Source: Candidatus Bilamarchaeum dharawalense (lineage in GTDB: Archaea; Micrarchaeota; Micrarchaeia; Anstonellales; Bilamarchaeaceae). Taken from it: a DNA stretch of 64,000 bases. The notes under the pieces were generated by a model that saw only the letters and a program-made list of their open reading frames with translations, was not told where the DNA came from and made no database searches. This document shows positions 433 through 48,716 of this stretch, piece by piece (positions within the stretch are counted from its first letter, which is position 1; every line of letters begins with the position of its first letter). Location of the stretch: positions 345,870-409,869 of the forward strand of contig CABMJJ010000009.1 in the NCBI GenBank assembly GCA_902386555.1, given 5' to 3'. Made by a program: the position numbers and the translations under genes.

Positions 433-750
433 TCAAACTTTCTTACCAGTTCCAAATAGCTCTAAAAATGTTTCTTTGAAGGATTTTTTTAGAGGTTGCT
501 TGAGAAGATAGGAACGAACAGTAGGATACTGCCGAGTAAGTTCAAAACTGAATACGTAGTCACTGATTATTTCGTGTGGAATATTTTCTTGGTGGATGAT
601 AATCTCTTTTTCATCCTTTTTTTCACCGTCATCAAATTCCAGTTTTTCGGTTATAACTTTTTTTGGTTTTGATTTGATTTTGGATGAGTGTTTTTGCGCC
701 TGTTTTTTATGTGGTGCTTTCTTCTTGAACACTTTTTTTGATTTCTTCAT
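433..750 (-). CDS. Small, very basic Lys-rich protein; the N-terminal half resembles a histone-H1-like tail and is followed by a roughly 50 aa globular part. Hypothetical.
   Basis: 105 aa ORF. The first roughly 45 residues are about 45% K. There is a 4-bp overlap (747-750) with the upstream gene. Confidence 0.4.
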   Translation of the reverse strand: MKKSKKVFKKKAPHKKQAQKHSSKIKSKPKKVITEKLEFDDGEKKDEKEIIIHQENIPHEIISDYVFSFELTRQYPTVRSYLLKQPLKKSFKETFLELFGTGKKV

Positions 751-1451
751 TCAAAGCGCCTCTTGATGTAACCCTCACGGATAAGAAGGTTCAGACCCTC
801 TTCCACCCTAGTCACAGCAACAGAATTGGCCTTTGCAAAATCACGAACATCGATGGTGCCGCCATGAACCTTGATCCAATTATAGAGGGATTCCTTAAGT
901 AAATCATCACTCATGCCACTCATTTGGGCTAACTTTTTCTGGAGTTCGTCGCGTTTTCTTTCACATTCCAATAAAAGACGGGTATTTGCTTCGCCAGATC
1001 GGACCAGATCATCATATTTGGCAGTAAGGTCTTCGTGTTTCGCTTCAAGTTCAGTGAGTTGGGTAGAAAATTCCATTGCATCCCGGTCAATTATTTTTGC
1101 AGTTTCAGATAAAACTGCAGTAACCTGAGAAAAGATGCTTGTGGGTTTTACATCATAGTAGTCTTCAGCAACCTGAATAATGTTTAGAAAAGTTGGCATG
1201 AGATCAAGGAGTCTTGCTATTTTACCCCGTTTAGCAGAATATCCATAGAAAAATTCTATGGCATTTGGTTTGAAATCAACCTTATATTCAAGATAGGGTT
1301 TACCCTGAAGATCAGAACCTTTGATCTTTTCCACAGAAAGTACATTTTTGATAAATGCAATTTTAGTAAAACCAAGACCGCTAAGAAGTGTGGCAAGGTT
1401 TTTCAGTGGTTTCTTCTGTTTTGCAGCAACAATTATCTTTTCCTCAGTCAT
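747..1451 (-). CDS. Hypothetical protein with an N-terminal globular domain, a central coiled coil and a C-terminal winged-helix-like domain
   Basis: 234 aa. A heptad-like stretch (TELEAKHEDLTAKYDDL...KRDELQKKLAQ) is followed by a predicted wHTH (ANSVAVTRVEEGLNLLIREGYIKRR). It overlaps the ATPase gene by 8 bp and the basic-protein gene by 4 bp. Confidence 0.45.
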   Translation of the reverse strand: MTEEKIIVAAKQKKPLKNLATLLSGLGFTKIAFIKNVLSVEKIKGSDLQGKPYLEYKVDFKPNAIEFFYGYSAKRGKIARLLDLMPTFLNIIQVAEDYYDVKPTSIFSQVTAVLSETAKIIDRDAMEFSTQLTELEAKHEDLTAKYDDLVRSGEANTRLLLECERKRDELQKKLAQMSGMSDDLLKESLYNWIKVHGGTIDVRDFAKANSVAVTRVEEGLNLLIREGYIKRRFE

Positions 1452-2928
1452 TGTCTTCCTCCAAAACGACGTTTACCACGCCTTTAGTAGCCTTTCTCAT
1501 TCTAACCAGTGAGAAGACTCGAATAAGGTTCTTTTCATCAATACCAAGCTGACGCAGGAAGGAGATGATCGATGGCCGGGCATAACCGAATTTTTCTAGG
1601 ATGGCAACAAGCTGTTCACCATCCACAAGACCATCGCCCTTGGAAAACTCATTTTTGATTAGGTTAAGTTGTCCTTCATTAAGTCCAATTTCATAAAGCA
1701 TCCTAACAAATTGCTCTCGTTCAACTTCAATAATCATTTCCCCACCTCTAATTTTATAGATGAGAAGTGGTTCCTCCCCATCAATCTTATCCATCAGAAA
1801 TGTCATAACTCTGGTTTGTCTTTCTGCAAATATCATATTGACTGCAGCATCACCCACACCAAACTTTGAGATTTCACCATCGATGAAATCAGAATACCCA
1901 ATTGAATTCCTTACATAGTCACGGAATTCTTTAAGGATGATCCTAAGAACGAAAACACTTCCAATGTTGCTGAATATTGTCTTATGCATATCAGTTGGGT
2001 TTTGGGTGGCGATGACCAGAGAAAAATTATACTTACGGCCTTCCCGGACAATGGTTATGACATCGCTTCTTTCGTCCTGTGCTATTTTCCAAGCTTCATC
2101 AAGAACAACAAAAAGCTTGACTTTCTTGTTATCAGGTTGCATACCCTCAGAACGCATGAGCTCCTTGATATACTGCAAAATAGTTAGACCTGCAAGGCTT
2201 CTCATTTCCTCGCTAGGAAGTCCATGAAGATCAATGCAGACAAGACCGCTGGAAGTTAGTTTCTTTATGTCCATGGTTGATGTTCCAGCAAAAAAATCAG
2301 TACCTTCAGTTGTGAATCTTTTTAGCAGTCTGGCAGATTTTTTCCTACCTGCTTCCTCAAGTATTTTTACCACATCAGCCAGGGTTGGCCTCATTTTGCT
2401 TGGGCCAGCATCATTTTTGGCTTTCTTTGCATTTTTACCATAGTAAACAGCTTCCAATGCATCTTCAATTTCATCTCTTTCATTTGGATAGCTCTTAAGA
2501 TCAAGAAGAATGTCCAATGCGGATATAATTTGTTTAATTCTGCTTCTTTTTTGAACACCAACAAGATCAAGAATATTCAATCTTTCTTTTGCAAGATTGA
2601 TGACCTTGCCACCGGCTTGTTTTACCCAGGGCTCGTATTCCCCAACCCAGTCTAGGATTATGGCATTGGTGTTCCAAATAAGGGAGGCGCGAGTTAGGAA
2701 AGTTTTTACTGTATAGCTCTTACCAGAACCAGTAATACCGATAACTGCGATATGAGGATTGATAAGCTTGCTCGGATCCCAAAAAACAGGAGTGCGTAAA
2801 AATCGTGTTTTACCAATGTATACACCGTGGGAGGGTGATGCCAGGAGTAGATCTTTGCGTGGCTCGGGTGGGTGCACCAGAATCATTTTCCGTGCAACCT
2901 CTTTCGAGAGCATGTAAGATGGTTTCAT
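1444..2928 (-). CDS. HerA/FtsK-superfamily (DUF87-like) P-loop ATPase with a roughly 140 aa C-terminal helical extension
   Basis: Walker A (GITGSGKS), Walker B (VVLDEAW) and an ATQNP sensor/arginine-finger-like motif typical of the HerA/FtsK/VirB4 clade. 494 aa. Confidence 0.7.
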   Translation of the reverse strand: MKPSYMLSKEVARKMILVHPPEPRKDLLLASPSHGVYIGKTRFLRTPVFWDPSKLINPHIAVIGITGSGKSYTVKTFLTRASLIWNTNAIILDWVGEYEPWVKQAGGKVINLAKERLNILDLVGVQKRSRIKQIISALDILLDLKSYPNERDEIEDALEAVYYGKNAKKAKNDAGPSKMRPTLADVVKILEEAGRKKSARLLKRFTTEGTDFFAGTSTMDIKKLTSSGLVCIDLHGLPSEEMRSLAGLTILQYIKELMRSEGMQPDNKKVKLFVVLDEAWKIAQDERSDVITIVREGRKYNFSLVIATQNPTDMHKTIFSNIGSVFVLRIILKEFRDYVRNSIGYSDFIDGEISKFGVGDAAVNMIFAERQTRVMTFLMDKIDGEEPLLIYKIRGGEMIIEVEREQFVRMLYEIGLNEGQLNLIKNEFSKGDGLVDGEQLVAILEKFGYARPSIISFLRQLGIDEKNLIRVFSLVRMRKATKGVVNVVLEEDND

Positions 2929-3001
2929 ATGAACAAACTTCCTCCAATATACCTATATTCGTAACCTTGGAGGATATTTAAAGGTTAGCTCTCGATAACC
3001 G

Positions 3002-3913
3002 CTATCCAACAAAGGTAAGAATTTTTTGAGCAACCACGTCGTTTTGAGGTATTTGATTAATAATTCCGTTGTGGTCTCTGCCAGAAACAACAAGTGTTTC
3101 CACCGGAACGTATTTTGCCTTGAGAGCAGTTTCAAATGCAGTGAGTTGGGAAACTGGCACCAGTTCGTCACTTGAACCTAGAATAAGCAGATATTGGGTT
3201 GTTTCACCGGCCTTGACTTGGGATGCTGGGGAAACATCTATTTTTGGGGTGGATCCTAGGAATGAATCCAGAGCAAGGCTTACTGCCCCCTGTTCTTCAA
3301 GAGTAACAAAATCATAGGGACCAGCCAGACCAACAACCTTATCCACATTGACAGAGTTGAATTCTGATTCCTTCAGACCATATAGGGCAGAAAGATGAGC
3401 ACCTGCAGAATGACCAAGAAGAACGATTCTGTAATTATCTTTCAAGGAGAATTGCTCCTTGTTGGAATCCACATATTTCAAAACCGATGAGATGTCTTCC
3501 ATGGGAGCAGGATATTTGCTCATCGGTGCCAGGCGGTAATCCATATTCACAACACTGTAGCCGTTTTTGGCAAGGAACTGGGCTATTGGAGCCATGTACC
3601 CCTTATCACCAGCCACCCAAGCGCCCCCATGAATAACGATCACGAGTGTATCGGATTGTTGTGATGGGGCATAGAAATCAAAAATCTGAAGCAGACTCGT
3701 TGTCCCATAGCGTATGTTTTTTTTATCACCCAATGAAGGGGTAGTTGTTGTGTTATCTTCAGGAGGAGTATAAAAGTCATTATCTGAATCGTTGGTCACG
3801 AGTATTGGATTTCCACTATCTGAATTTCGATGTAGAGCAGAACAACACCCGGTTAGAATTATGGTAAAAAGAAGTAAACCGAAAAAAACCCCCACTCCTA
3901 GAATATTTTTCAT
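3002..3913 (-). CDS. Secreted or lipid-anchored alpha/beta-hydrolase (esterase/lipase family)
   Basis: HGGAW oxyanion motif and GHSAGAH nucleophile elbow. The N-terminal hydrophobic segment has a TGCCS lipobox-like site. I chose the start at M34 of the track ORF (cat at 3911-3913) so that the gene does not overlap the downstream ORF. Confidence 0.6.
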   Translation of the reverse strand: MKNILGVGVFFGLLLFTIILTGCCSALHRNSDSGNPILVTNDSDNDFYTPPEDNTTTTPSLGDKKNIRYGTTSLLQIFDFYAPSQQSDTLVIVIHGGAWVAGDKGYMAPIAQFLAKNGYSVVNMDYRLAPMSKYPAPMEDISSVLKYVDSNKEQFSLKDNYRIVLLGHSAGAHLSALYGLKESEFNSVNVDKVVGLAGPYDFVTLEEQGAVSLALDSFLGSTPKIDVSPASQVKAGETTQYLLILGSSDELVPVSQLTAFETALKAKYVPVETLVVSGRDHNGIINQIPQNDVVAQKILTFVG

Positions 3914-3957
3914 GATTAGGAATGGAACTTGAAAAAATTTAAACCAAGCTGATGATG

Positions 3958-4740
3958 TCAGAATAATGCGTCCTTGATTTCTTCTGGAGTTGTTGGGAAG
4001 AAATAGTCCCATTCAAAGCATTTGAGCATTTCCAGATCATGAAGCTCGCGGATATCGCAACCAAGAGAACTGGAAAGAATTGTTTTCAATTCCTTTGCTT
4101 GCCTTGACACTCGGCTTACCGCTTCTTCACGAGTAAGACCAAATGCAGTGGTGGAAGCGAACGCAATAATCTCAACTGGTCTTTCACCCTGAGTAATTCT
4201 ATCAAGAAGACGATTCCAATAGGCCAATTCACGATCGATCCTCATGGACTCGTCAGCAGCCAATTTCACTTCCTTTGCTTTTCTGGATTCAACTGCCCCA
4301 CGTTTGGTTTTGATTTCATCAATATGCTTGGACAGATCAAGGGTACTGATCATGAGTGAAATTTTTACAATGTATTTTAGTGAGCTAACGGCCTTTTCAA
4401 AAGACTCGAACATGTTCTTTTTTTCCTCGGTGCCCTTGTCCATGGAACTTTCATAAAATTTGATCTCGAGGAATTTGGAAACATAATAACCGGATTCGTT
4501 TTTCTTAATTATATACTCCCTAGATGGAGGAACCTCATAGCCATCGTGCATCTCGATAATGTTTGTCGCCTTGGTGAAGAATGGGATGATGAGATAGCCA
4601 TATTTCCAAAGAACAAGACTAAGGAAAAAGAAACATGCTGCAACAACTGAAAGAAGTGGACTACCGTAAACAAGTGAAATGATTACGGCCAAAATGCCGC
4701 CGACAAGTGTTATAGCAGTAACTGCTCTGTTCAGAAACAT
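3958..4740 (-). CDS. Hypothetical membrane protein with 2 N-terminal TM helices and a cytoplasmic coiled-coil domain
   Basis: 260 aa. Hydrophobic N-terminus, then a charged helical region. Confidence 0.4.
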   Translation of the reverse strand: MFLNRAVTAITLVGGILAVIISLVYGSPLLSVVAACFFFLSLVLWKYGYLIIPFFTKATNIIEMHDGYEVPPSREYIIKKNESGYYVSKFLEIKFYESSMDKGTEEKKNMFESFEKAVSSLKYIVKISLMISTLDLSKHIDEIKTKRGAVESRKAKEVKLAADESMRIDRELAYWNRLLDRITQGERPVEIIAFASTTAFGLTREEAVSRVSRQAKELKTILSSSLGCDIRELHDLEMLKCFEWDYFFPTTPEEIKDALF

Positions 4741-4795: not shown

Positions 4796-5902
4796 TCATA
4801 TGGAGGTGAATGACTTTATACCAATCTCACTTCCAAGAATGCCGGCAAGCTCTTTCACGAATACTATGGTAATGATAAGTGAGAAGATTGGTGCCAGCAC
4901 ATTGTAGAGAATTGATTTGGCAATGGCATTGTTGTTACTTTGCGAGATTAGAGTGAGATCACCACTAAGATCAACTGACAGATTTTGGGTCTGGTTTTGC
5001 TGAGAGTAAAGCAATAAATCGCAGGAGCTACCGTTTTCAGCGAGAGTGATGTTTACCAAGCTACCATTAACGACAGTACTTGAAAAGTTCTGCATGGTCC
5101 CATTAATATAGAAAGGACTGCGGACAAAACTACAACGACCGCTCATCACATCCAGTTTGCTTGCAAGGACATAATTGTTATTCAAATCAATTATGGGGAC
5201 CGTAGCATAATAGCTATTGTTTGTGAAATTTTTCATGGTATCTATGGAGCCATTGATCGTAGCTATTGGACTTGGGAAAATAAGGATGAATGTTGGATAG
5301 AAAATGAAAAGACCAATTGCAAGACCGATTAGGAACCCACCCAGTTTTCTTGTGGCAAAGAGAGTCCTGAGCACAAGCCCCAATGGAAATAGAAGACCAA
5401 GTGCATTCTGACCAATAAATACGGCTATTTGACTATTAAGCTGACCGATTATCATGATTGCATTGAGACTAACAAGTTGAAGGGAGAGAATATTGGAAAC
5501 CGATGCAAGATTAGCAAATGGGGACAGTCCGAATGCCCCGAAATCCAATGACATGGTTTGGTAATAACCAAGGATATTGAGAGTTTGGACGACCTGTTGG
5601 AACAGAGCAAAAAGAGAGGTGTTGACACCATCCAGGGTGCAACTTAATTGATTAACCACATTTCCATTGGCACATTGGCCAACAACAACTGAAGAACTGA
5701 CTACACCGACCAATTCAACAATGGCTGCAAAAGATCCAATGATGGCTGCGTTGATAACTGATTGGATAAGTTCTTCCAATCCAAAATGTTCTACTTTCTT
5801 ATTACCAATGGCACGACCTATGCCTACCAAAATACCTGCAAGAACTATGGATGCGGTCACTACAATGACTGCAATTTCAATACCAACAAATGATTCTGCC
5901 AT
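4796..5902 (-). CDS. Hypothetical polytopic membrane protein with many N-glycosylation sequons in its Asn/Ser-rich loops
   Basis: 368 aa with multiple hydrophobic helices. More than 12 N-x-S/T sequons in the C-terminal extracellular region. Confidence 0.4.
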   Translation of the reverse strand: MAESFVGIEIAVIVVTASIVLAGILVGIGRAIGNKKVEHFGLEELIQSVINAAIIGSFAAIVELVGVVSSSVVVGQCANGNVVNQLSCTLDGVNTSLFALFQQVVQTLNILGYYQTMSLDFGAFGLSPFANLASVSNILSLQLVSLNAIMIIGQLNSQIAVFIGQNALGLLFPLGLVLRTLFATRKLGGFLIGLAIGLFIFYPTFILIFPSPIATINGSIDTMKNFTNNSYYATVPIIDLNNNYVLASKLDVMSGRCSFVRSPFYINGTMQNFSSTVVNGSLVNITLAENGSSCDLLLYSQQNQTQNLSVDLSGDLTLISQSNNNAIAKSILYNVLAPIFSLIITIVFVKELAGILGSEIGIKSFTSI

Positions 5903-5960: not shown

Positions 5961-6614
5961 TTAGATAATTTTCAATAGTTTTTTACCCATGTAGATAAAT
6001 CGTGTAGTACCTCTAGCGTAAATGGGACCTTTTTTTGTAACGAACTTTACTTTTTTCAAAGCCTTGAGCAACGCTTTTGGATCATTAAAATCAAAATCAG
6101 GAAATTCGTTGTAGTTGTAACCAAATTCAAAAAGAAAATGACTGTCGCTCCCAACTGCCTTTAGCATTTTGTTCCTACTGGCAAATGATTCGGCCAGGTG
6201 ATTAAAATTTGGATTTAAACAGCGTGCATTGAAAACTTCAATAACATCCACCTTTTTTGCTTCATCATCGCTCACGTGAGCACCGGAACGAGCATGATCA
6301 TACATGTGCGGTAGATAGGCAATGCCCCCCTGTTCATGAATGTTATCTATTGCTTCCAGAAAAGGTATTCTTTTTGGAATACGTTCATTGATATGGAGTG
6401 CAACAAGATCGCCCTTATCTGTGGAAATTTCTTCACCTGGGATGAAATCCGCACCAAGAGAACGCATTTCATTATGGGCTTCAATTGAATTGTGGTCAGT
6501 AACAGTGGGGATTATTCCCAGTTTTTTTGCCTTTGCGGCCAGGTCCCTGGGCTGGGTTAGTGAATCAGGAGAATATTTTGTGTGAATATGAAAATCGATT
6601 TTCATGTTAATCAA
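5961..6614 (-). CDS. PHP-domain metal-dependent phosphoesterase
   Basis: N-terminal IDFHIHTKYSPDS motif (H-x-H) typical of PHP domains. 217 aa. 8-bp overlap with the upstream gene. Confidence 0.7.
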   Translation of the reverse strand: MINMKIDFHIHTKYSPDSLTQPRDLAAKAKKLGIIPTVTDHNSIEAHNEMRSLGADFIPGEEISTDKGDLVALHINERIPKRIPFLEAIDNIHEQGGIAYLPHMYDHARSGAHVSDDEAKKVDVIEVFNARCLNPNFNHLAESFASRNKMLKAVGSDSHFLFEFGYNYNEFPDFDFNDPKALLKALKKVKFVTKKGPIYARGTTRFIYMGKKLLKII

Positions 6615-6906
6615 TTAGGGCATTACCTTTTTCAAGAATTGTAATCAATTCCTTTGCAATCCCATTTCCCTGTTTATGATTTATCTTCTTTTTTCCTTTT
6701 ACCATTATTCTTCCGCTGGCATAGAGACTAACCGAATAGTCTTTGAATTTTGCAAGAATAACAACCGGACTATTGCCAAGAGAGGAAAGAAGTAACTCGG
6801 CTTTTTTTAAATCAATTTTTTTATTTTTAAGTTTTATTTCTACCCCATTTGAAGAACTACATGGCTCCACAACAAAAAAATCAGTCATCCGAGTTTCGCC
6901 TTCCAA
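6607..6906 (-). CDS. Small hypothetical protein (99 aa) co-transcribed with the ThiF-like E1. It contains a segment (VSLYASGRIMVKGKK) reminiscent of the TBP-domain repeat motif. No C-terminal GG.
   Basis: ORF overlaps on both sides (6885-6906 and 6607-6614). The motif resemblance is only my own inspection. Confidence 0.35.
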   Translation of the reverse strand: MEGETRMTDFFVVEPCSSSNGVEIKLKNKKIDLKKAELLLSSLGNSPVVILAKFKDYSVSLYASGRIMVKGKKKINHKQGNGIAKELITILEKGNALID

Positions 6907-7562
6907 AATATTTCTTTTTTATAAAGATCAAAAAAAATTGCATTGGGGGCTTTGGTAATTGGTTTTTTTAGCAAAAAGTTCATTGCCTGAGATACCGCAA
7001 GCGTGCCAGCCAAGGATGCTGCCGGGCACATGATGGAAGAACATGAAGAAAAATTATCAATATCCTTGCCCGCAAGCTGAAATGCTTTTTCAAATTTATA
7101 GGTTGTAAAAATTGTCACCATACCGCGTGTGGACTGAGCAGAACAAAAAACGTAGGGGATTTTTTTATCCCGGGCCATTCTGGCCATGAGTAACTTCGAC
7201 TCCAGATTATCAGTTCCGTCTAGCAGCATGTCTGTTGTGTTAATATCGGTATCCTCATCGAATTTTCTGAATGTTTTTAGGTTAATATTTTTGTTGATTG
7301 TTTTTGCCCTGGCAATGGCAGCGTGAACCTTAGGGATGTCAAGAAATTCATCGGTGGCCAGGGTTTGACGATTGAAATTAGATAGTTCAAAGCGATCGTG
7401 ATCAAAAACAATGATGTTCTCGGCACCAAGTCTAAGTAAGTTTTCCAGAATAAATCCGCCAGTTCCTCCTAGACCAACAATGGTAAATTTTGTTTTACGA
7501 ATTTTTTCCTGTTGGTTTTTCGTAAGTGGATTTCTCAGAAATTTAAATTTATAGAAGTTCAT
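6885..7562 (-). CDS. ThiF/MoeB/HesA-family E1-like adenylyltransferase (TcdA-like size)
   Basis: Rossmann nucleotide motif VGLGGTGG, then DHDRFELSNFNRQ. 225 aa. Confidence 0.75.
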   Translation of the reverse strand: MNFYKFKFLRNPLTKNQQEKIRKTKFTIVGLGGTGGFILENLLRLGAENIIVFDHDRFELSNFNRQTLATDEFLDIPKVHAAIARAKTINKNINLKTFRKFDEDTDINTTDMLLDGTDNLESKLLMARMARDKKIPYVFCSAQSTRGMVTIFTTYKFEKAFQLAGKDIDNFSSCSSIMCPAASLAGTLAVSQAMNFLLKKPITKAPNAIFFDLYKKEIFWKAKLG

Positions 7563-7984
7563 TTGCTCAGTTTTTTCGATATGTGTTCTTGCGAAATGCG
7601 ATTTAACTTATCTTTGATCATGCGTACCTCTTCCTTTTTCACATTACCACTTTGAAGTTCGGTTAGGTTTCGCAGAATTTCCAGCCTGCGCTGAACATGA
7701 GGGTCCAGTGCCTTTTCCTGAAATAGTCCGAAGTGGGTAACATGGTAAAAGAAAATTGAAACACCGGAAAATAGAACTACGATGGTGAATAGTTTCCCAA
7801 TACTGGTATGGGGAGTTATATCACCATAGCCAACTGTGGTTATTGTGATTGACACAAAATAAATCGCATCTATCAGTGAAAGACCTTCGAAATAGATATA
7901 GAATGGAACTGCAATCAGATACACCAAAAATAACATGACAACTGCACTGAGCAGACTTTTTCTGATCTGATCTGAACTAGACAT
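7559..7984 (-). CDS. Small two-TM potassium channel (KcsA-like) with a cytoplasmic coiled-coil tail
   Basis: Selectivity filter TTVGYGDITP between two hydrophobic helices. 141 aa. ATGA overlap with the ThiF-like gene. Confidence 0.7.
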   Translation of the reverse strand: MSSSDQIRKSLLSAVVMLFLVYLIAVPFYIYFEGLSLIDAIYFVSITITTVGYGDITPHTSIGKLFTIVVLFSGVSIFFYHVTHFGLFQEKALDPHVQRRLEILRNLTELQSGNVKKEEVRMIKDKLNRISQEHISKKLSK

Positions 7985-40331: not shown

Positions 40332-40509
40332 GAAGTGAATATGGTCCGTAAGTTATAAAAAGGTTTATTTTGTGGGTATGAATTAGATGTAGAGGTGTTG
40401 TAATGAGGTAAAAGGAGTAGAAATGGTCAGACGCTGTTGACTTCATCACAGATCAGAGGTTGTTCAGGTCATCATCCCAGATAGGATAGTATAACAAGTG
40501 GATATAAAC

Positions 40510-44238: not shown

Positions 44239-44493
44239 ATGGCAATTGGCGCAGAAGTAGTTGCAGCGGGAATAGCAGCTTTCCTTACAACAATAGCTCC
44301 GATTATAGCGATTATTCTACTTACACTCGGTGGCATTACCTATGGTCTTGCCCAGACCCAACCAGCAGAGATTAGAGGTAAATGGCAAACTGCAGCAATA
44401 AGCATGTTTGTCGGCGGTTTAATCGTTGGGGCAGTGGCTGGAGCAGCAGGAATAATCCAAACAGCATCATCAGGATTGCTTAGACCTGCATAA
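44239..44493 (+). CDS. Small Gly/Ala-rich two-helix membrane protein (TrbC/VirB2-like pilin topology)
   Basis: 84 aa: a hydrophobic helix, a short polar loop (AQTQPAEIRGKWQ), then a second hydrophobic helix. It is followed by a strong hairpin terminator. Confidence 0.4.
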   Translation: MAIGAEVVAAGIAAFLTTIAPIIAIILLTLGGITYGLAQTQPAEIRGKWQTAAISMFVGGLIVGAVAGAAGIIQTASSGLLRPA

Positions 44494-44725: not shown

Positions 44726-44983
44726 ATGAAATCTACGGAAGAAAAATTAGATGATGATGGCTTTGAGGAAATCGAATCAAAACCAGAGTCAAGTGGACAG
44801 CAGAGTGGAGGGGGAAACAGACCAGATTTCCGAATAGTTCAAACCGATCGAGACAAGGATGGGAATGTTGTTTATAGTAATATTGGCGGAATGTGGAAAA
44901 ACATTTCTAAAAACGGAAAAACATTCTACACCATGCGAATTGGGCAATTGAAATTACTTGTTTTCCCAAATGAGCGAAAGTAA
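44726..44983 (+). CDS. Small hypothetical protein with an acidic low-complexity N-terminus. The C-terminal half (PDFRIV...[22 protein letters not shown]) is reminiscent of DUF736 proteins from plasmids/ICEs.
   Basis: 85 aa ORF preceded by an AT-rich region carrying inverted repeats. The resemblance comes from memory of DUF736 consensus features only. Confidence 0.3.
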
Positions 44984-45002
44984 GTGGATAGAGGCGACTA
45001 TT

Positions 45003-45974
45003 ATGGCAGAGGATAAAGAAAAGGATAAGAAAAAGAAATATTATAAGGACCTGGAAGATTTACCAGGAATTGGAGAGGTAACTGCGGAGAAACTTAGAGC
45101 AGCTGGCTATGGCGAATTTTCAGCCATTGCAGCAGCAAACCCACATGAACTTGCAGAATCAGGTGGGATGGGAGTGGAGTCAGCAAAAAAGGCAATAGAA
45201 GCTGCAAAATCCATGGTGGAGATAGGCTTTGAAACAGCAGATGTGGTGTTTGAAAGAAGAAAGGACCTTGGAAGAATAAAAACAGGTTCCACCGCACTTG
45301 ATGAATTACTTGGTGGCGGCATCGAGACCATGGCTATCACCGAGATGTATGGTAAATTTTCAAGCGGTAAAAGCCAACTTGGATTCCAACTTGTTGTGAA
45401 TGTACAAAAACCAGTGGACCAGGGAGGGTTAAACGGTGCGGTCTTGTTTGTAGATTCAGAAGCAACATTCAGACCAGAAAGAATATTTCAGCTTGCTGAA
45501 TCCCAGGGACTTGATCCACAGACAGTGCTGAAGAACACTCACATTGCCAGAGCGGAGAATAGTGATCATCAAATAATTCTACTTGAAAAAGCAGAGGAAG
45601 TTATAGAAAAAAACAACATCAAATTGATTGTTGTTGACTCCCTAACCTCTCATTTTAGAGCAGATTATCTAGGTCGTGGTGCACTTGGCGAACGCCAGCA
45701 AAAACTGAATAAACATGTCCATACCTTACAGAAATTAGCTGAAAAATACAATCTGGCAGTTTATGTTACCAATCAGGTCATGGACAATCCTGGAATTTTA
45801 TTTGGTGACCCAACAACGCCGATTGGAGGCCATGTTCTTGCCCATATGTCAACATACAGATTATATGTGAGAAAAAGTAAAGATGACAAAAGAATAGCAA
45901 GATTGGTGGATTCCCCAAATCTACCTGAAGGTGAGGCAGTATTTCGCGTAACTCCGAAAGGACTAACAGATTAA
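45003..45974 (+). CDS. radA: DNA repair and recombination protein RadA
   Basis: N-terminal HhH domain ([20 protein letters not shown]) and a RecA core with Walker [11 protein letters not shown] chose the start at MAEDKE (atg at 45003) rather than the track start at 44958, which overlaps the upstream ORF. Confidence 0.9.
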
Positions 45975-46675: not shown

Positions 46676-47350
46676 ATGTTTCCATTTTTTAACATGAATT
46701 ACAATATTATCCCAATAAAAAGATTTTTAGCTTTAAATAGCAAGACGAGTATGATGGCCGAGAACACGACAGATTGGTCTGGATTAGTACTGATAGCAGC
46801 AAATATCTTAACAATAATTTTAGCAGTTTTATTGCAGTATGATTTTGGAGTGATGATTTGGAGCTACTGGGCAGAAAGCGTAATCATAGGAATTTTTACA
46901 ATTGTTGGGATGATCACGATTGGACTGATGTCAAAGAACATTCTGGGGTGGTTCTCAGCAGTGCTCACGGTGGGATTTTTTACAGTTCATTATGGAATGT
47001 TTCATTTCATCTATGCGGTCTTCTTGTTAGTCATACCACTGTTTGTTGTAAACAATTGGGTGGATGTTACTATGACGACCGGAATTTTATTCCTGAGTCA
47101 TCTTTTTTCTTTTATTTACAATAGCTTTCTAAGAAAACAAACACAGACAACCGTGGATAAAATGATGCTTGAACCATATGGGCGCATAGTGCCGATGCAC
47201 CTGACGATCATGTTGTCTGGCTTCATAATATTTATTTTCCCAAGTATGGATGCATTACCAAAAACGATACTGCTGGTTGTTTTTATGTCATTAAAAACGA
47301 TTGGGGATTTCTTGGCTCATAGAAAGAAGCATACAGTTAACCAAGAGTAG
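46676..47350 (+). CDS. Hypothetical polytopic membrane protein (6-7 TM helices)
   Basis: 224 aa. The start could instead be the MMAEN methionine at 46751. Immediately upstream of the FlaI-like ATPase. Confidence 0.4.
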   Translation: MFPFFNMNYNIIPIKRFLALNSKTSMMAENTTDWSGLVLIAANILTIILAVLLQYDFGVMIWSYWAESVIIGIFTIVGMITIGLMSKNILGWFSAVLTVGFFTVHYGMFHFIYAVFLLVIPLFVVNNWVDVTMTTGILFLSHLFSFIYNSFLRKQTQTTVDKMMLEPYGRIVPMHLTIMLSGFIIFIFPSMDALPKTILLVVFMSLKTIGDFLAHRKKHTVNQE

Positions 47351-47384
47351 AATTATAAAAATCCCCTGTAATAGATTTGGGGGG

Positions 47385-48716
47385 ATGAATATGCTAGGCT
47401 GGCGGATTCTAGGCCAAGGAGAGTATAAATTAGACATACCAGAACTAAGCGATGATGAAAAAAGACTTATTTTAGCAACTGAAGAAAGGATCAAAGAGAT
47501 TGCCAGAACGAATAGTGTGGATGATTTGGAAGCGCGCAAATCAATGATAGAAAGCGCCATGAGTTATTGTGTCAATAAGAATTGCTTTTACTTAAATTCC
47601 AACCAGACAGCCTATTTGAACAAGATTGCGTTCATCCATATCTATGGTTTTGGTTTTCTTGAGCAATTGGTAAACGATAATGAAATTGAGGAAATAAGCA
47701 TTATTGGCCCTAACAAACCAGTTTATGTATATATAAGAAAAATCGGGTGGAAAAGCATTAATGCGTGTTTTGAAACCGAACAAGCCATAGCAGATATGAT
47801 AAATAAGATGGCGCGGGGCTTGGGACGCCATATAACGATGCAAAATCCAAGGCTTGATGCAGTTTTACCAAATGGCTCACGCCTTCATGCGTCATTGGCA
47901 CCCATATCAGAAGGAGAGATAACAGTACGAAAATTTAGACAGCGGCCATTTTCTCCAAAGGAACTTTCTGGTGATTTGGTCTCGATTGAGGGGTTGGCCC
48001 TACTTTCAATGATAATGCAATGTGATTTTTCTGTGATTCTGGCTGGCAACACGGCAAGCGGAAAAACAACAACCATGAACTCATTATTCTCATTTATACC
48101 ATCAACTGAGAGAGTTATTATCACTGAAGAAACTCCGGAGATTAATGTACCCCACAAACATCAGTTAAGATTAGTAGCAAACAAAGAGATGGATGTAAAA
48201 TTAAAGGACCTGGTGTATGATTCGTTGAGAATGCGACCGGATAGGGTGATCATTGGAGAGGTTAGAAATAAAGAAGAAATTGAAGCGTTGTTTGATGTTT
48301 TATTAGCTGGACAGGCACGTGGAAATTATGCAACTTTTCATGCACAAAGCGCTGATGAGACACTTACGCGATTATCATCTTTCGGAATTAGAAGAGCCGA
48401 CCTTACGTGCATAGACTGCATAGTAGTACAACGAAGAATGTTGGAATATAACCATCAAAAAAGAGAGAATAGAGAAATACGACGAATCACCGACATCGCA
48501 GAAGTGAGAGGTGAGGTAACCCATAGTTTATATCATGATGGAAGGTTACACCTCCAGGAATCGTTACTGGTAGAAAAGATATGTGACCATTTTAAGTTAG
48601 GTAAAAAGGAACTGGAAGTTGAATTGGGAAAACGAAAACAACTTATCCTAAATGCCAATTCTGATTACTTCGAATTTTTTGACCATATACAAAAGGCATT
48701 GTATGGAGGCGAATAA
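47385..48716 (+). CDS. FlaI/TadA/VirB11-family type IV pilus/archaellum assembly ATPase
   Basis: Walker A AGNTASGKTT and secretion-ATPase-fold motifs. GGGGGG SD-like sequence before the ATG at 47385. The track ORF start at 47301 is rejected because it overlaps the previous gene. Confidence 0.8.
   Translation: MNMLGWRILGQGEYKLDIPELSDDEKRLILATEERIKEIARTNSVDDLEARKSMIESAMSYCVNKNCFYLNSNQTAYLNKIAFIHIYGFGFLEQLVNDNEIEEISIIGPNKPVYVYIRKIGWKSINACFETEQAIADMINKMARGLGRHITMQNPRLDAVLPNGSRLHASLAPISEGEITVRKFRQRPFSPKELSGDLVSIEGLALLSMIMQCDFSVILAGNTASGKTTTMNSLFSFIPSTERVIITEETPEINVPHKHQLRLVANKEMDVKLKDLVYDSLRMRPDRVIIGEVRNKEEIEALFDVLLAGQARGNYATFHAQSADETLTRLSSFGIRRADLTCIDCIVVQRRMLEYNHQKRENREIRRITDIAEVRGEVTHSLYHDGRLHLQESLLVEKICDHFKLGKKELEVELGKRKQLILNANSDYFEFFDHIQKALYGGE

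Follow-up and report, generated by a model that had tools for sequence, protein, structure and literature searches.

Ced and Ted are domesticated T4SS (PMC9905601), and both of these characterised archaeal systems move DNA (PMC9905601, PMC11868833). The Ced system of the Sulfolobales (CedA, CedA1, CedA2 and CedB, with CedD and CedE described later) is a chromosomal, relaxase-less T4SS derivative in which a VirB4/HerA-like ATPase with an N-terminal membrane anchor is accompanied by a polytopic membrane protein and a small two-helix pilin. Its VirB4 N-terminal domain is shared out between CedB and CedD, with a part on each (PMC11868833). The Ted system of the Thermoproteales (TedA, TedB and TedC) has a chromosomal VirB2-like pilin, a VirB6-like channel and a VirB4-like ATPase, and it has diverged so far from Ced that profile methods alone link the components of the two (PMC9905601). 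In the Patescibacteria (CPR), a T4SS of MPF-FATA ancestry is phylum-wide, chromosomal, mostly relaxase-less and centred on VirB4, with VirB2-like pilins, in ultrasmall host-dependent cells, where it is reported to be essential for epibiotic growth (PMC12102498). Giant nanohaloarchaeal proteins with VirB4-like domains have been proposed to secrete effectors (PMC10266531).

The stretch of DNA that we analysed, 64 kb long and called the window below, comes from Candidatus Bilamarchaeum dharawalense (Micrarchaeota, DPANN). Micrarchaeota are tiny, host-dependent archaea. The initial annotation had described three overlapping minus-strand genes, lying between a lipoprotein esterase gene and purD, as an operon for a HerA/FtsK-like ATPase, a coiled-coil winged-helix protein and a histone-H1-like basic protein. 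Both flanking genes are present, and the three ORFs do overlap, by 8 bp between the ATPase gene and the 234-aa gene (1444-1451) and by 4 bp between the 234-aa gene and the 105-aa gene (747-750). These ORFs are genuine genes and not chance, because 80 species genomes have orthologues of the whole trio, arranged in the same way. The coupling is not the tightest in the window, as had been claimed, since the run 5961-6614, 6607-6906, 6885-7562 and 7559-7984 overlaps by 8, 22 and 4 bp. The features of the locus are as follows.

1-402: N-terminus of purD, with GARS domains at the orthologous position in relatives
433..750, minus strand: microprotein, 105 aa, with a Lys-rich tail (about residues 1-60) and a conserved C-terminal core of ~40 aa (YVFSFELTRQYPTVRSYLLKQPLKKSFKETFLELFG)
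747..1451, minus strand: cytoplasmic partner, 234 aa, with a basic beta-rich N-terminal domain (residues 1-101), a single long helix (104-178) and a C-terminal winged helix (182-225)
1444..2928, minus strand: VirB4/CedB-type ATPase, 494 aa, without the VirB4 N-terminal domain and with a conserved acidic helical C-terminal extension
2975..2982, minus strand: TATA-like TTTAAATA, read from the sequence, ~50 nt upstream of the ATPase ATG
3002..4012, minus strand: esterase lipoprotein gene (Pfam BD-FAE/Abhydrolase_3) with a signal/lipobox-like LTGC
3958..4740, minus strand: membrane-anchored VirB4 N-terminal-domain-like protein, 260 aa, with a TM hairpin (about residues 1-56) and an alpha/beta domain
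4796..5902, minus strand: membrane protein, 368 aa, polytopic by hydropathy, with an extracellular loop rich in N-glycosylation sequons
44239..44493, plus strand: VirB2/TrbC-like two-helix pilin, 84 aa, unlinked, 38 kb from the cluster

The three genes are conserved as a unit, although the boundaries of that unit had been drawn wrongly, and the genes at 3958-4740 and 4796-5902 belong to the same conserved cluster. In Micrarchaeota (80 species genomes) the genes run from the polytopic membrane protein through the 260-aa membrane-anchored protein, the ATPase, the coiled-coil/winged-helix protein and the microprotein with the ~40-aa core to purD; stop/start overlaps mostly link the cluster genes and occur between all four core genes. 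The initial annotation had missed the 260-aa gene, the polytopic membrane gene and the VirB2-like pilin. Both upstream genes are in the window, separated from the ATPase gene only by an inserted esterase gene. ATPase and coiled-coil/winged-helix protein were found in all of the fetched loci (85/85), and the microprotein core lies directly 3' of the 234-aa gene in 70/86 sources. Synteny of the cluster with purD and a transglutaminase gene is kept across many species. We believe that the three genes probably encode the cytoplasmic, distal portion of an envelope machine that derives from a T4SS (Ced/Ted-like), has a split VirB4 and is fixed in the chromosome of Micrarchaeota; our literature search found no published description of such a machine in Micrarchaeota.

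The family matches of the ATPase bear out its placement as a motor of the HerA/FtsK superfamily. The motifs GITGSGKS, VVLDEAW and ATQNP are all present, and the R-x-G-R-K motif of VirB4/HerA-type ATPases occurs as REGRKYN. Pfam matches above the cutoffs are DUF87 (75.4 bits) and AAA_10 (56.8 bits). The top NCBIfam matches are CedB (94.9 bits) and the CD1110 VirB4-like model (89.6 bits), with HerA models at ~42-51 bits, all scores that are far below the curated cutoffs. The CedB alignment pairs ATPase residues 33-363 with positions 251-573 of a 590-position model, so that only part of the model is covered, and because the score is so far below the equivalog cutoff of 700 bits the ATPase is not a CedB orthologue. 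The public label "DNA import protein CedB" for 1444-2928 is an over-annotation of a fragment. PDB profile matches include HerA and VirB4 (4ag5), the best being to anti-phage HerA, and the PADLOC HerA model matches at 90 bits (best 2.7e-26). Judged by such matches, VirB4 and HerA are not separable by the ATPase domain alone. By the initial annotation's own standard, an ATPase that falls in a characterised family would refute it, and this is essentially the case: the 494-aa protein represents the C-terminal ATPase half of a VirB4/CedB-type protein.

Across the 80 species loci the ATPase is 55-91% identical, and among the homologues listed, some of which contain inteins, it is 70-92% identical across Micrarchaeota. 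No second HerA/VirB4-type ATPase was found in the window by tblastn, and none appears among the called neighbours. The domain match stops near residue 363 and therefore leaves over a C-terminal extension of ~110-130 aa (about residues 385-494). This extension, already described as unusual in the initial annotation, is conserved and has a pI of 5.0. It matched no family, giving only weak matches to EF-hand pairs, HhH repeats and designed helical repeats, and no gamma-domain-like match was found in it.

By profile comparison, the VirB4 N-terminal domain that is missing from the ATPase is encoded by the separate upstream 260-aa gene. Among 67 orthologues of the 260-aa protein, NCBIfam matches are to the N-terminal part of CedB (19/67, best E 2.5e-5), the CD1110 VirB4-like model (17/67) and VirB4_plasma (11/67), and CedB is the best NCBIfam model for both this protein and the ATPase. 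We also compared it with full-length VirB4-like relatives from the representative library (e.g. P0413 in locus L087), which are proteins of 689-913 aa in which an N-terminal region of ~250-300 aa precedes an ATPase domain 27-33% identical to the one here (BLASTP). Alignment of the 260-aa protein with the N-termini of seven of these relatives by hhalign gave a probability of 85.6 and an E-value of 5.5e-6; the soluble part without the TM hairpin gave 1.7e-5, and controls gave 0.014-0.61. This moderate signal argues that the 260-aa protein is homologous to the N-terminal region of the closest full-length VirB4/CedB-like ATPases. In 22 genomes the gap between the 260-aa gene and the ATPase gene is at most 1 nt. 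The AF2 model of the 260-aa protein has a mean pLDDT of 69, its best Foldseek match is the non-significant 8rtd_h of the R388 T4SS (E 0.026), and a PDB profile search with the protein gave nothing useful. No fusion of the 260-aa protein to the ATPase (Rosetta-stone) was found among 150 representatives, where the long matches are intein-bearing or true full-length VirB4-like proteins. Unlike the arrangement in the window, the full-length relatives are single polypeptides with other downstream partners (432 aa, 119 aa) and a different C-terminal region, which the extension matches weakly (E 0.0044). In L087, two genes upstream of the full-length ATPase carry Pfam CedA1 matches.

The esterase gene is an inserted passenger that separates the halves of the split VirB4 and is not part of the machine; among the fetched loci, a homologue at the same position occurs only in L037. 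Its true start is likely the internal Met at 3913. The TATA-like TTTAAATA, together with a GGAGG at 2941-2945 upstream of the ATPase ATG, could possibly give the three distal genes a promoter and ribosome-binding site of their own.

In relatives, the membrane gene comes immediately before the 260-aa gene, and the two often overlap by 4 bp. The place of the 368-aa membrane protein in the cluster and its multi-pass topology would suit a positional counterpart of VirB6/CedA. Searches with it gave no Pfam or PDB match and no detectable similarity to VirB6 or CedA, and the hhalign comparison with the CedA-like protein of L087 was non-significant (E 0.15). By hhalign (probability 99.1) it has a homologue in the membrane protein of outgroup locus L086, and its pilin-like N-terminal hairpin gives a weak match (E 0.0016).

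The pilin orthologue is the first gene of the cluster in deeper-branching Micrarchaeota and in outgroup loci. An HMM of three outgroup pilin-like proteins matched the window ORF 44239-44493 at E 8.8e-19, and in 14 distant loci the same HMM matches the gene that directly precedes the membrane gene on its upstream side. Within this family, 14/18 match Pfam T4SS_pilin and 3/18 match TrbC/VirB2, and one member, the L083 orthologue, exceeds the TrbC/VirB2 gathering score (30.2 bits, cutoff 27.9). The window pilin taken alone is a weak match (T4SS_pilin, E 0.48), the pilin has no PDB sequence match, and its comparison with the CedA1-matching protein of L087 was non-significant. At the level of the family, these profile matches indicate that a two-helix pilin of the VirB2/TrbC/CedA1 type is present. 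In the window, the pilin gene adjoins a DUF736-like gene and radA, neighbours that hint at a link with DNA or recombination.

The architecture is repeated in outgroup loci whose ATPases are 26-38% identical to the one in the window. A pilin-like gene is first in L086, L088 and L089, and a partner of ~230 aa is last in L086, L089 and L090. In L086 the membrane and N-domain proteins are homologous to those of the window, and so is the partner, in a profile of L086 and L089.

We found no family assignment for the two partner proteins, which the initial annotation had also called an unrecognised combination, and PADLOC gave zero matches for them. The winged helix of the 234-aa protein is near-neutral (pI 6.8), and its best match in both structure and sequence is the peptide-binding winged helix of CdvB (ESCRT-III), so DNA binding by it is not implied. 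EAP30/Vps36 is weakly matched by 23/76 orthologues. Some orthologues carry the JGI label "RNase H-like nuclease (RuvC/YqgF)", which we rejected: no set of acidic catalytic residues is conserved, and the strands are predicted in an order unlike that of RNase H. The 105-aa protein had been read as a histone-H1-like DNA clamp with an N-terminal half of about 45% lysine. The first 32 residues are 47% lysine, but for the half as a whole the figure is 37% (19/52). Lys-rich tails were found in the window protein and in those of L037 and L038 only; elsewhere the tails are R/G/A-rich or absent (proteins of 42-43 aa). The conserved part is not a Lys-rich segment of the kind that marks histone-H1-like proteins, it is the C-terminal ~40 aa, and with a tail that is lineage-specific and variable or missing in other orthologues we abandoned the clamp interpretation.

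Compared with the described systems, the locus resembles Ced in being chromosomal and apparently relaxase-less, in having the same three kinds of component, and in a VirB4 N-terminal domain that is not on one polypeptide. It differs in how VirB4 is divided, into an N-domain gene and an ATPase-domain gene in Micrarchaeota and into two paralogous full ATPases in Ced, in a membrane protein without detectable CedA similarity, in the ~110-aa extension of the ATPase, in two cytoplasmic partners beyond the Ced components that PMC9905601 and PMC11868833 name, and in its host, here a mesophilic DPANN symbiont. With Ted it shares the trio of pilin, channel-position protein and VirB4-like ATPase, and a divergence that only profile methods bridge. 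TedB, in contrast, is a single full-length VirB4, Ted loci have ParA, Rad50 and HerA neighbours that are absent here, and no coiled-coil/winged-helix or microprotein partner is named among the Ted components (PMC9905601). The Patescibacteria T4SS, which is bacterial and has a single-chain VirB4 and other accessory genes, is an ecological and organisational parallel, for which we consider homology at the level of the VirB4 and VirB2 families only.

Several other readings of the cluster deserve weighing. HerA helicases, which act in DNA end resection and anti-phage defence, share the P-loop ATPase fold and motifs with the ATPase, and the anti-phage HerA structures 8wiv and 8xau are its strongest PDB profile matches, which, with the PADLOC score given above, would suit a module built on a HerA-type helicase and serving DNA repair or anti-phage defence, in which the coiled-coil/winged-helix and basic proteins would be effector or sensor. 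However, the HAS-barrel is absent, the HerA models aligning from about position 140 onward to ATPase residues 57-363, and no gene for NurA, Mre11, Rad50, a nuclease or a sirtuin adjoins the cluster. Membrane and pilin partners are ill-suited to a HerA system, the other partners match nothing in PADLOC, and the cluster is a syntenic, near-universal chromosomal core with 60-92% identity, unlike patchy defence islands, so that we consider such a module very improbable. The defence or partition role floated in the initial annotation is disfavoured on these grounds, and the translocation role floated with it is plausible. An FtsK-like segregation or division module, in which the CdvB-like winged helix would link the motor to the division machinery, is quite improbable. 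It would draw on the CdvB and EAP30/Vps36 matches of the partner, and conservation of a housekeeping kind, like the inteins in homologues, would suit an essential gene; against it, the Pfam FtsK_SpoIIIE match covers 36 P-loop residues (44-79) at the cutoff (24.5 bits, cutoff 24), a full FtsK motor and gamma (KOPS-reading) domain are absent, and the pilin gene at the head of the cluster in deeper lineages would be out of place in segregation. The locus might also be a decayed integrated conjugative element or plasmid remnant and not a host system, as VirB4-like ATPases and VirB2-like pilins are hallmarks of such elements and the best plasmid match is annotated as a VirB4-like conjugal transfer ATPase. 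We regard this as extremely improbable, because the same chromosomal neighbours, purD and the transglutaminase gene, are found in many species, the ATPase is conserved over the 80 species loci, and the neighbourhood is chromosomal core, with no integrase, relaxase or repeats seen at the locus. Searches for close relatives on plasmids, phages and IMG/VR contigs found none, with plasmid and phage matches at <=28% identity and zero matches in IMG/VR.

A different question is whether the same machine does another job, namely pilus assembly or delivery of proteins or effectors for attachment to, or exploitation of, a host archaeon, instead of DNA import. VirB2, VirB6 and VirB4 form the core for conjugative-type pili, as is established for T4SS (PMC9905601), and no relaxase, coupling protein or nuclease was seen adjoining the cluster. 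The epibiotic role of the relaxase-less Patescibacteria T4SS (PMC12102498) and the effector secretion proposed for the nanohaloarchaeal giant proteins (PMC10266531) point the same way, and the near-neutral, CdvB-like winged helix suggests peptide binding. On the other hand, DNA is the cargo of Ced and Ted, the characterised relatives in archaea (PMC9905601, PMC11868833), radA and the DUF736-like gene beside the pilin gene hint at DNA, and a candidate effector was not identified. We therefore judge the pilus or effector function rather unlikely, though it deserves to be taken seriously.

Under the reading that we prefer, a T4SS-derived envelope machine with a split VirB4, the motor would consist of two polypeptides, the membrane-anchored N-domain protein (3958-4740) and the ATPase domain (1444-2928). 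The other parts would be the VirB2-like pilin, relocated to 44239-44493, and the polytopic protein at the VirB6/CedA position (4796-5902). The ATPase presumably oligomerises as other VirB4/HerA ATPases do and may dock at the membrane through the 260-aa protein. It could use ATP for extracting pilin from the membrane, for driving a substrate through the membrane protein, or for both. By analogy with the Ced system, we infer that the substrate is most likely DNA and that it is imported. The dimerising coiled-coil/winged-helix protein (747-1451) and the microprotein (433-750) would be lineage-specific cytoplasmic partners whose translation is coupled to that of the ATPase; they may bind its acidic C-terminal extension and serve as its adaptor or regulator, a role that would otherwise fall to a coupling protein or relaxosome.

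Little is known about the way in which DPANN archaea acquire material from their hosts. For this, a conjugation-type machine with 55-91% identity across Micrarchaeota species is a concrete, testable candidate that parallels the Patescibacteria T4SS. It would extend domesticated T4SS of the Ced/Ted type from the Crenarchaeota to DPANN, and it adds a second and different split of VirB4, into an N-terminal-domain gene and an ATPase gene. The two new partner proteins may show how substrates are selected without a coupling protein or relaxase. More tentatively, we suggest as a possibility that the machine is the core-chromosomal counterpart in Micrarchaeota of the Patescibacteria T4SS, a conjugation-derived pilus and translocon whose VirB4 is encoded by two genes and whose new adaptor, made of the coiled-coil/CdvB-like winged-helix protein and the microprotein, replaces the coupling protein and relaxosome, taking DNA or other macromolecules from hosts of the Thermoplasmatales type. 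If this is true, such a counterpart would be a central determinant of the symbiotic lifestyle of DPANN archaea.

The initial annotation described a translationally coupled operon of three genes, and ORF translation places them where it had put them, on the minus strand and with the claimed overlaps of 8 bp and 4 bp:

1444-2928, minus strand, ATPase ORF, 494 aa
747-1451, minus strand, 234-aa ORF
433-750, minus strand, 105-aa ORF

The ATPase motifs GITGSGKS, VVLDEAW and ATQNP were all found, as were the claimed flanks, the start of purD downstream and, upstream, an alpha/beta-hydrolase with a signal/lipobox-like N-terminus. The coupling had been called the tightest in the window, but overlaps of 8, 22 and 4 bp join four other minus-strand genes, at 5961-7984. 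These are genes for a PHP-domain protein, a 99-aa ORF, a ThiF-family protein and a small K+-channel-like protein, and close relatives, among them locus L001, have the same run in front of the cluster. The genes of the window are archaeal, no tRNA was found in its 64 kb, and the sole Rfam match at the gathering threshold is the C/D-box sRNA sR9 at 40425-40479 on the minus strand (37.6 bits; gathering score 36).

The ATPase shares 100% identity with a protein of Candidatus Bilamarchaeum dharawalense, which belongs to the Micrarchaeota (DPANN). Homologues of the ATPase are abundant in Micrarchaeota metagenome-assembled genomes (70-92% identity among the matches listed), and scanning GTDB species, each by one genome, gave 280 relatives, the best 80 of which all carry Micrarchaeota-type labels. 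Examining relatives' loci by ORF calling and tblastn, we found a fixed order: a polytopic membrane protein of about 310-370 aa, a 259-260-aa protein, the ATPase, a 231-235-aa protein, a small ORF and purD. The reported triad recurs across Micrarchaeota loci, but it is not the whole unit, as the conserved cluster also takes in the two genes upstream, which stand in the same order in the window:

4796-5902, minus strand, membrane protein gene (368 aa)
3958-4740, minus strand, 260-aa protein gene

Neighbouring genes in the relatives' clusters are for the most part spaced at -8 to +5 nt. In 13 genomes the membrane gene shares a 4-bp overlap with the 260-aa gene, and in 22 genomes the 260-aa and ATPase genes are separated by at most 1 nt. 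In the window an esterase gene stands between the latter two, and among the loci examined a homologous esterase is at the same spot only in L037, the closest relative. This junction (window 2929-3957) is a recurrent insertion site, with 0.6-5 kb of unrelated genes in about 17 genomes (loci L001, L008-L012, L016, L020, L026, L028, L033, L037, L038, L046, L051, L060 and L085). The insert in the window and L037 is an esterase lipoprotein, and several others code for large proteins whose N-termini resemble signal peptides (1200-1259 aa in L008 and L016, 787 aa in L010). Two elements follow the insertion upstream of the ATPase gene, and they suggest that the three distal genes may be transcribed separately in the window:

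2975-2982, minus strand, TATA-like TTTAAATA
2941-2945, minus strand, GGAGG

Among Pfam families the ATPase matches DUF87 and AAA_10, and its best NCBIfam model is CedB (94.9 bits, with residues 33-363 aligned to positions 251-573 of the 590-position model), followed by the CD1110 VirB4-like family (89.6 bits) and then by the HerA models (about 42-51 bits), all of these scores being far below the curated cutoffs. PDB and PADLOC profiles of HerA also match strongly, so the ATPase domain alone cannot separate VirB4 from HerA. Of the VirB4/CedB models, the match covers only the C-terminal portion with the ATPase, and the upstream 260-aa protein matches that CedB model in its N-terminal portion (positions 8-175); its orthologues match CedB in 19/67 cases (best E 2.5e-5), CD1110 in 17/67 and VirB4_plasma in 11/67. 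When 1.84 billion representatives were searched exhaustively with HMMER, full-length relatives of 689-913 aa were recovered, in which an N-terminal region, about 250-300 aa long, precedes the ATPase domain. The 260-aa family profile is co-linear with those regions (hhalign probability 85.6, E 5.5e-6, 202 columns; E 1.7e-5 without the transmembrane hairpins), while three negative controls gave E 0.014-0.61. From these sequence comparisons we infer, at moderate confidence, that this family has separate genes for the VirB4 N-terminal domain and the ATPase domain. The partition differs from that in Sulfolobales, where CedB and CedD each have part of the N-terminal domain (PMC11868833). The public record's name for the ATPase, 'DNA import protein CedB', over-annotates a fragment: the score is 94.9 bits where the cutoff is 700, and the N-terminal half is absent. 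Two homologues from the representative search, P0370 (1196 aa) and P0369 (1026 aa), have LAGLIDADG inteins directly after Walker A (GITGSGKS) and just before Walker B (VVDEAW), with significant matches to Pfam Intein_splicing and LAGLIDADG_3.

In representatives at 26-38% identity the ATPase has kept its length and most of the C-terminal extension, and their contigs repeat the cluster architecture, with the N-domain and ATPase genes again split.

Cluster proteins of the outgroup loci
L086: pilin-like, 82 aa; membrane, 289 aa; N-domain, 232 aa; ATPase, 479 aa; partner, 238 aa
L089: pilin-like, 82 aa; membrane, 291 aa; N-domain, 229 aa; ATPase, 505 aa; partner, 232 aa
L088: pilin-like, 79 aa; membrane, 314 aa; N-domain, 260 aa; ATPase, 498 aa; a different protein of 648 aa in the partner place
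L090: contig begins inside the membrane gene (at least 351 aa); N-domain, 238 aa; ATPase, 377 aa; partner, 225 aa

At a further locus, L087, two genes with Pfam CedA1 matches precede a 913-aa full-length VirB4-like gene, an arrangement that links the entire group with Ced-like systems.

The outgroup loci begin with a two-helix protein of 79-82 aa. An HMM from three of these proteins detected an orthologue in 14 deeper-branching loci of Micrarchaeota, where it directly precedes the membrane gene, and one in the window:

44239-44493, plus strand, pilin orthologue, 84 aa (E 8.8e-19)

Against Pfam, 14/18 members of this family match T4SS_pilin and 3/18 match TrbC/VirB2, one of the latter over the gathering score (30.2 against 27.9 bits). 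The gene in Bilamarchaeum has moved 38 kb off the cluster and adjoins a DUF736-like ORF and radA. Directly downstream, the 85-aa ORF (44726-44983, plus strand) has a sub-threshold Pfam DUF736 match (E 0.0014, 19 bits; cutoff 22.1) and overlaps the start of the RadA recombinase gene (44958-45974, plus strand), recognised from its sequence. The DUF736 family is found on conjugative elements, and this stretch is a possible DNA-transfer/recombination neighbourhood. A T2SSE/FlaI-type secretion ATPase 3 kb from the pilin gene (47301-48716, plus strand; Pfam T2SSE 8.3e-35) may be part of a type IV pilus locus; in Sulfolobales, Ced acts in concert with type IV (Ups) pili.

The membrane protein of 368 aa, with about six hydrophobic segments and a loop rich in sequons, is homologous to the membrane protein of L086 (hhalign probability 99.1). 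Pfam, PDB and hhalign comparisons detected no likeness to VirB6, TrbL or CedA, and the protein is a putative channel by position and topology alone.

The 234-aa protein has a confident predicted fold (mean pLDDT 85.9) with a basic beta-rich domain (1-101, pI 9.4), a 75-residue helix (104-178) and a winged helix (182-225, pI 6.8). Its family is restricted (176 homologues, the named ones all Micrarchaeota) and homologous to the partner of L086 and L089 (probability 88, E 3e-6). The JGI label 'predicted RNase H-like nuclease (RuvC/YqgF family)' on some orthologues found no support here. The conserved part of the 105-aa protein is a C-terminal core of ~40 aa, and in 70/86 sources this core directly follows the 234-aa gene. 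The protein had been described as histone-H1-like, a reading we do not support because the Lys-rich tail was seen only in the protein of the window and those of two close relatives. The C-terminal extension of the ATPase, for which no family match was found, is highly conserved and acidic (pI 5.0); coupled translation and complementary charge suggest that it could be the docking site of these two basic partners.

We consider it probable that the cluster encodes a T4SS-derived machine. A HerA defence or repair module, the defence option having been raised in the initial annotation, is disfavoured despite the HerA profile matches, since the ATPase is without a HAS-barrel region, no nuclease or sirtuin accompanies it, PADLOC has no match for the partners and the locus belongs to the syntenic core. 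An FtsK-like segregation module is also disfavoured, its sole support being a 36-residue P-loop match and generic winged-helix similarity. So is a mobile element, a setting that had been proposed for checking in relatives: their chromosomal context is constant, and plasmid and phage matches reach at most 28% identity, with none in IMG/VR.

That the T4SS-derived machine moves DNA seems doubtful to us. The same machine in a non-DNA role, building an adhesion pilus or delivering proteins, is the live alternative; precedents are the relaxase-less T4SS of Patescibacteria (PMC12102498) and the VirB4-like domains of giant proteins in nanohaloarchaea (PMC10266531). A full-text search found no literature linking Micrarchaeota with Ced, VirB4 or T4SS, and DPANN are unmentioned in both the Ced/Ted paper and a 2025 T4SS review. 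We interpret the system as a probable domesticated T4SS like Ced/Ted of Sulfolobales and Thermoproteales, in which VirB4 would be encoded in two genes and would be joined by two new cytoplasmic partners.
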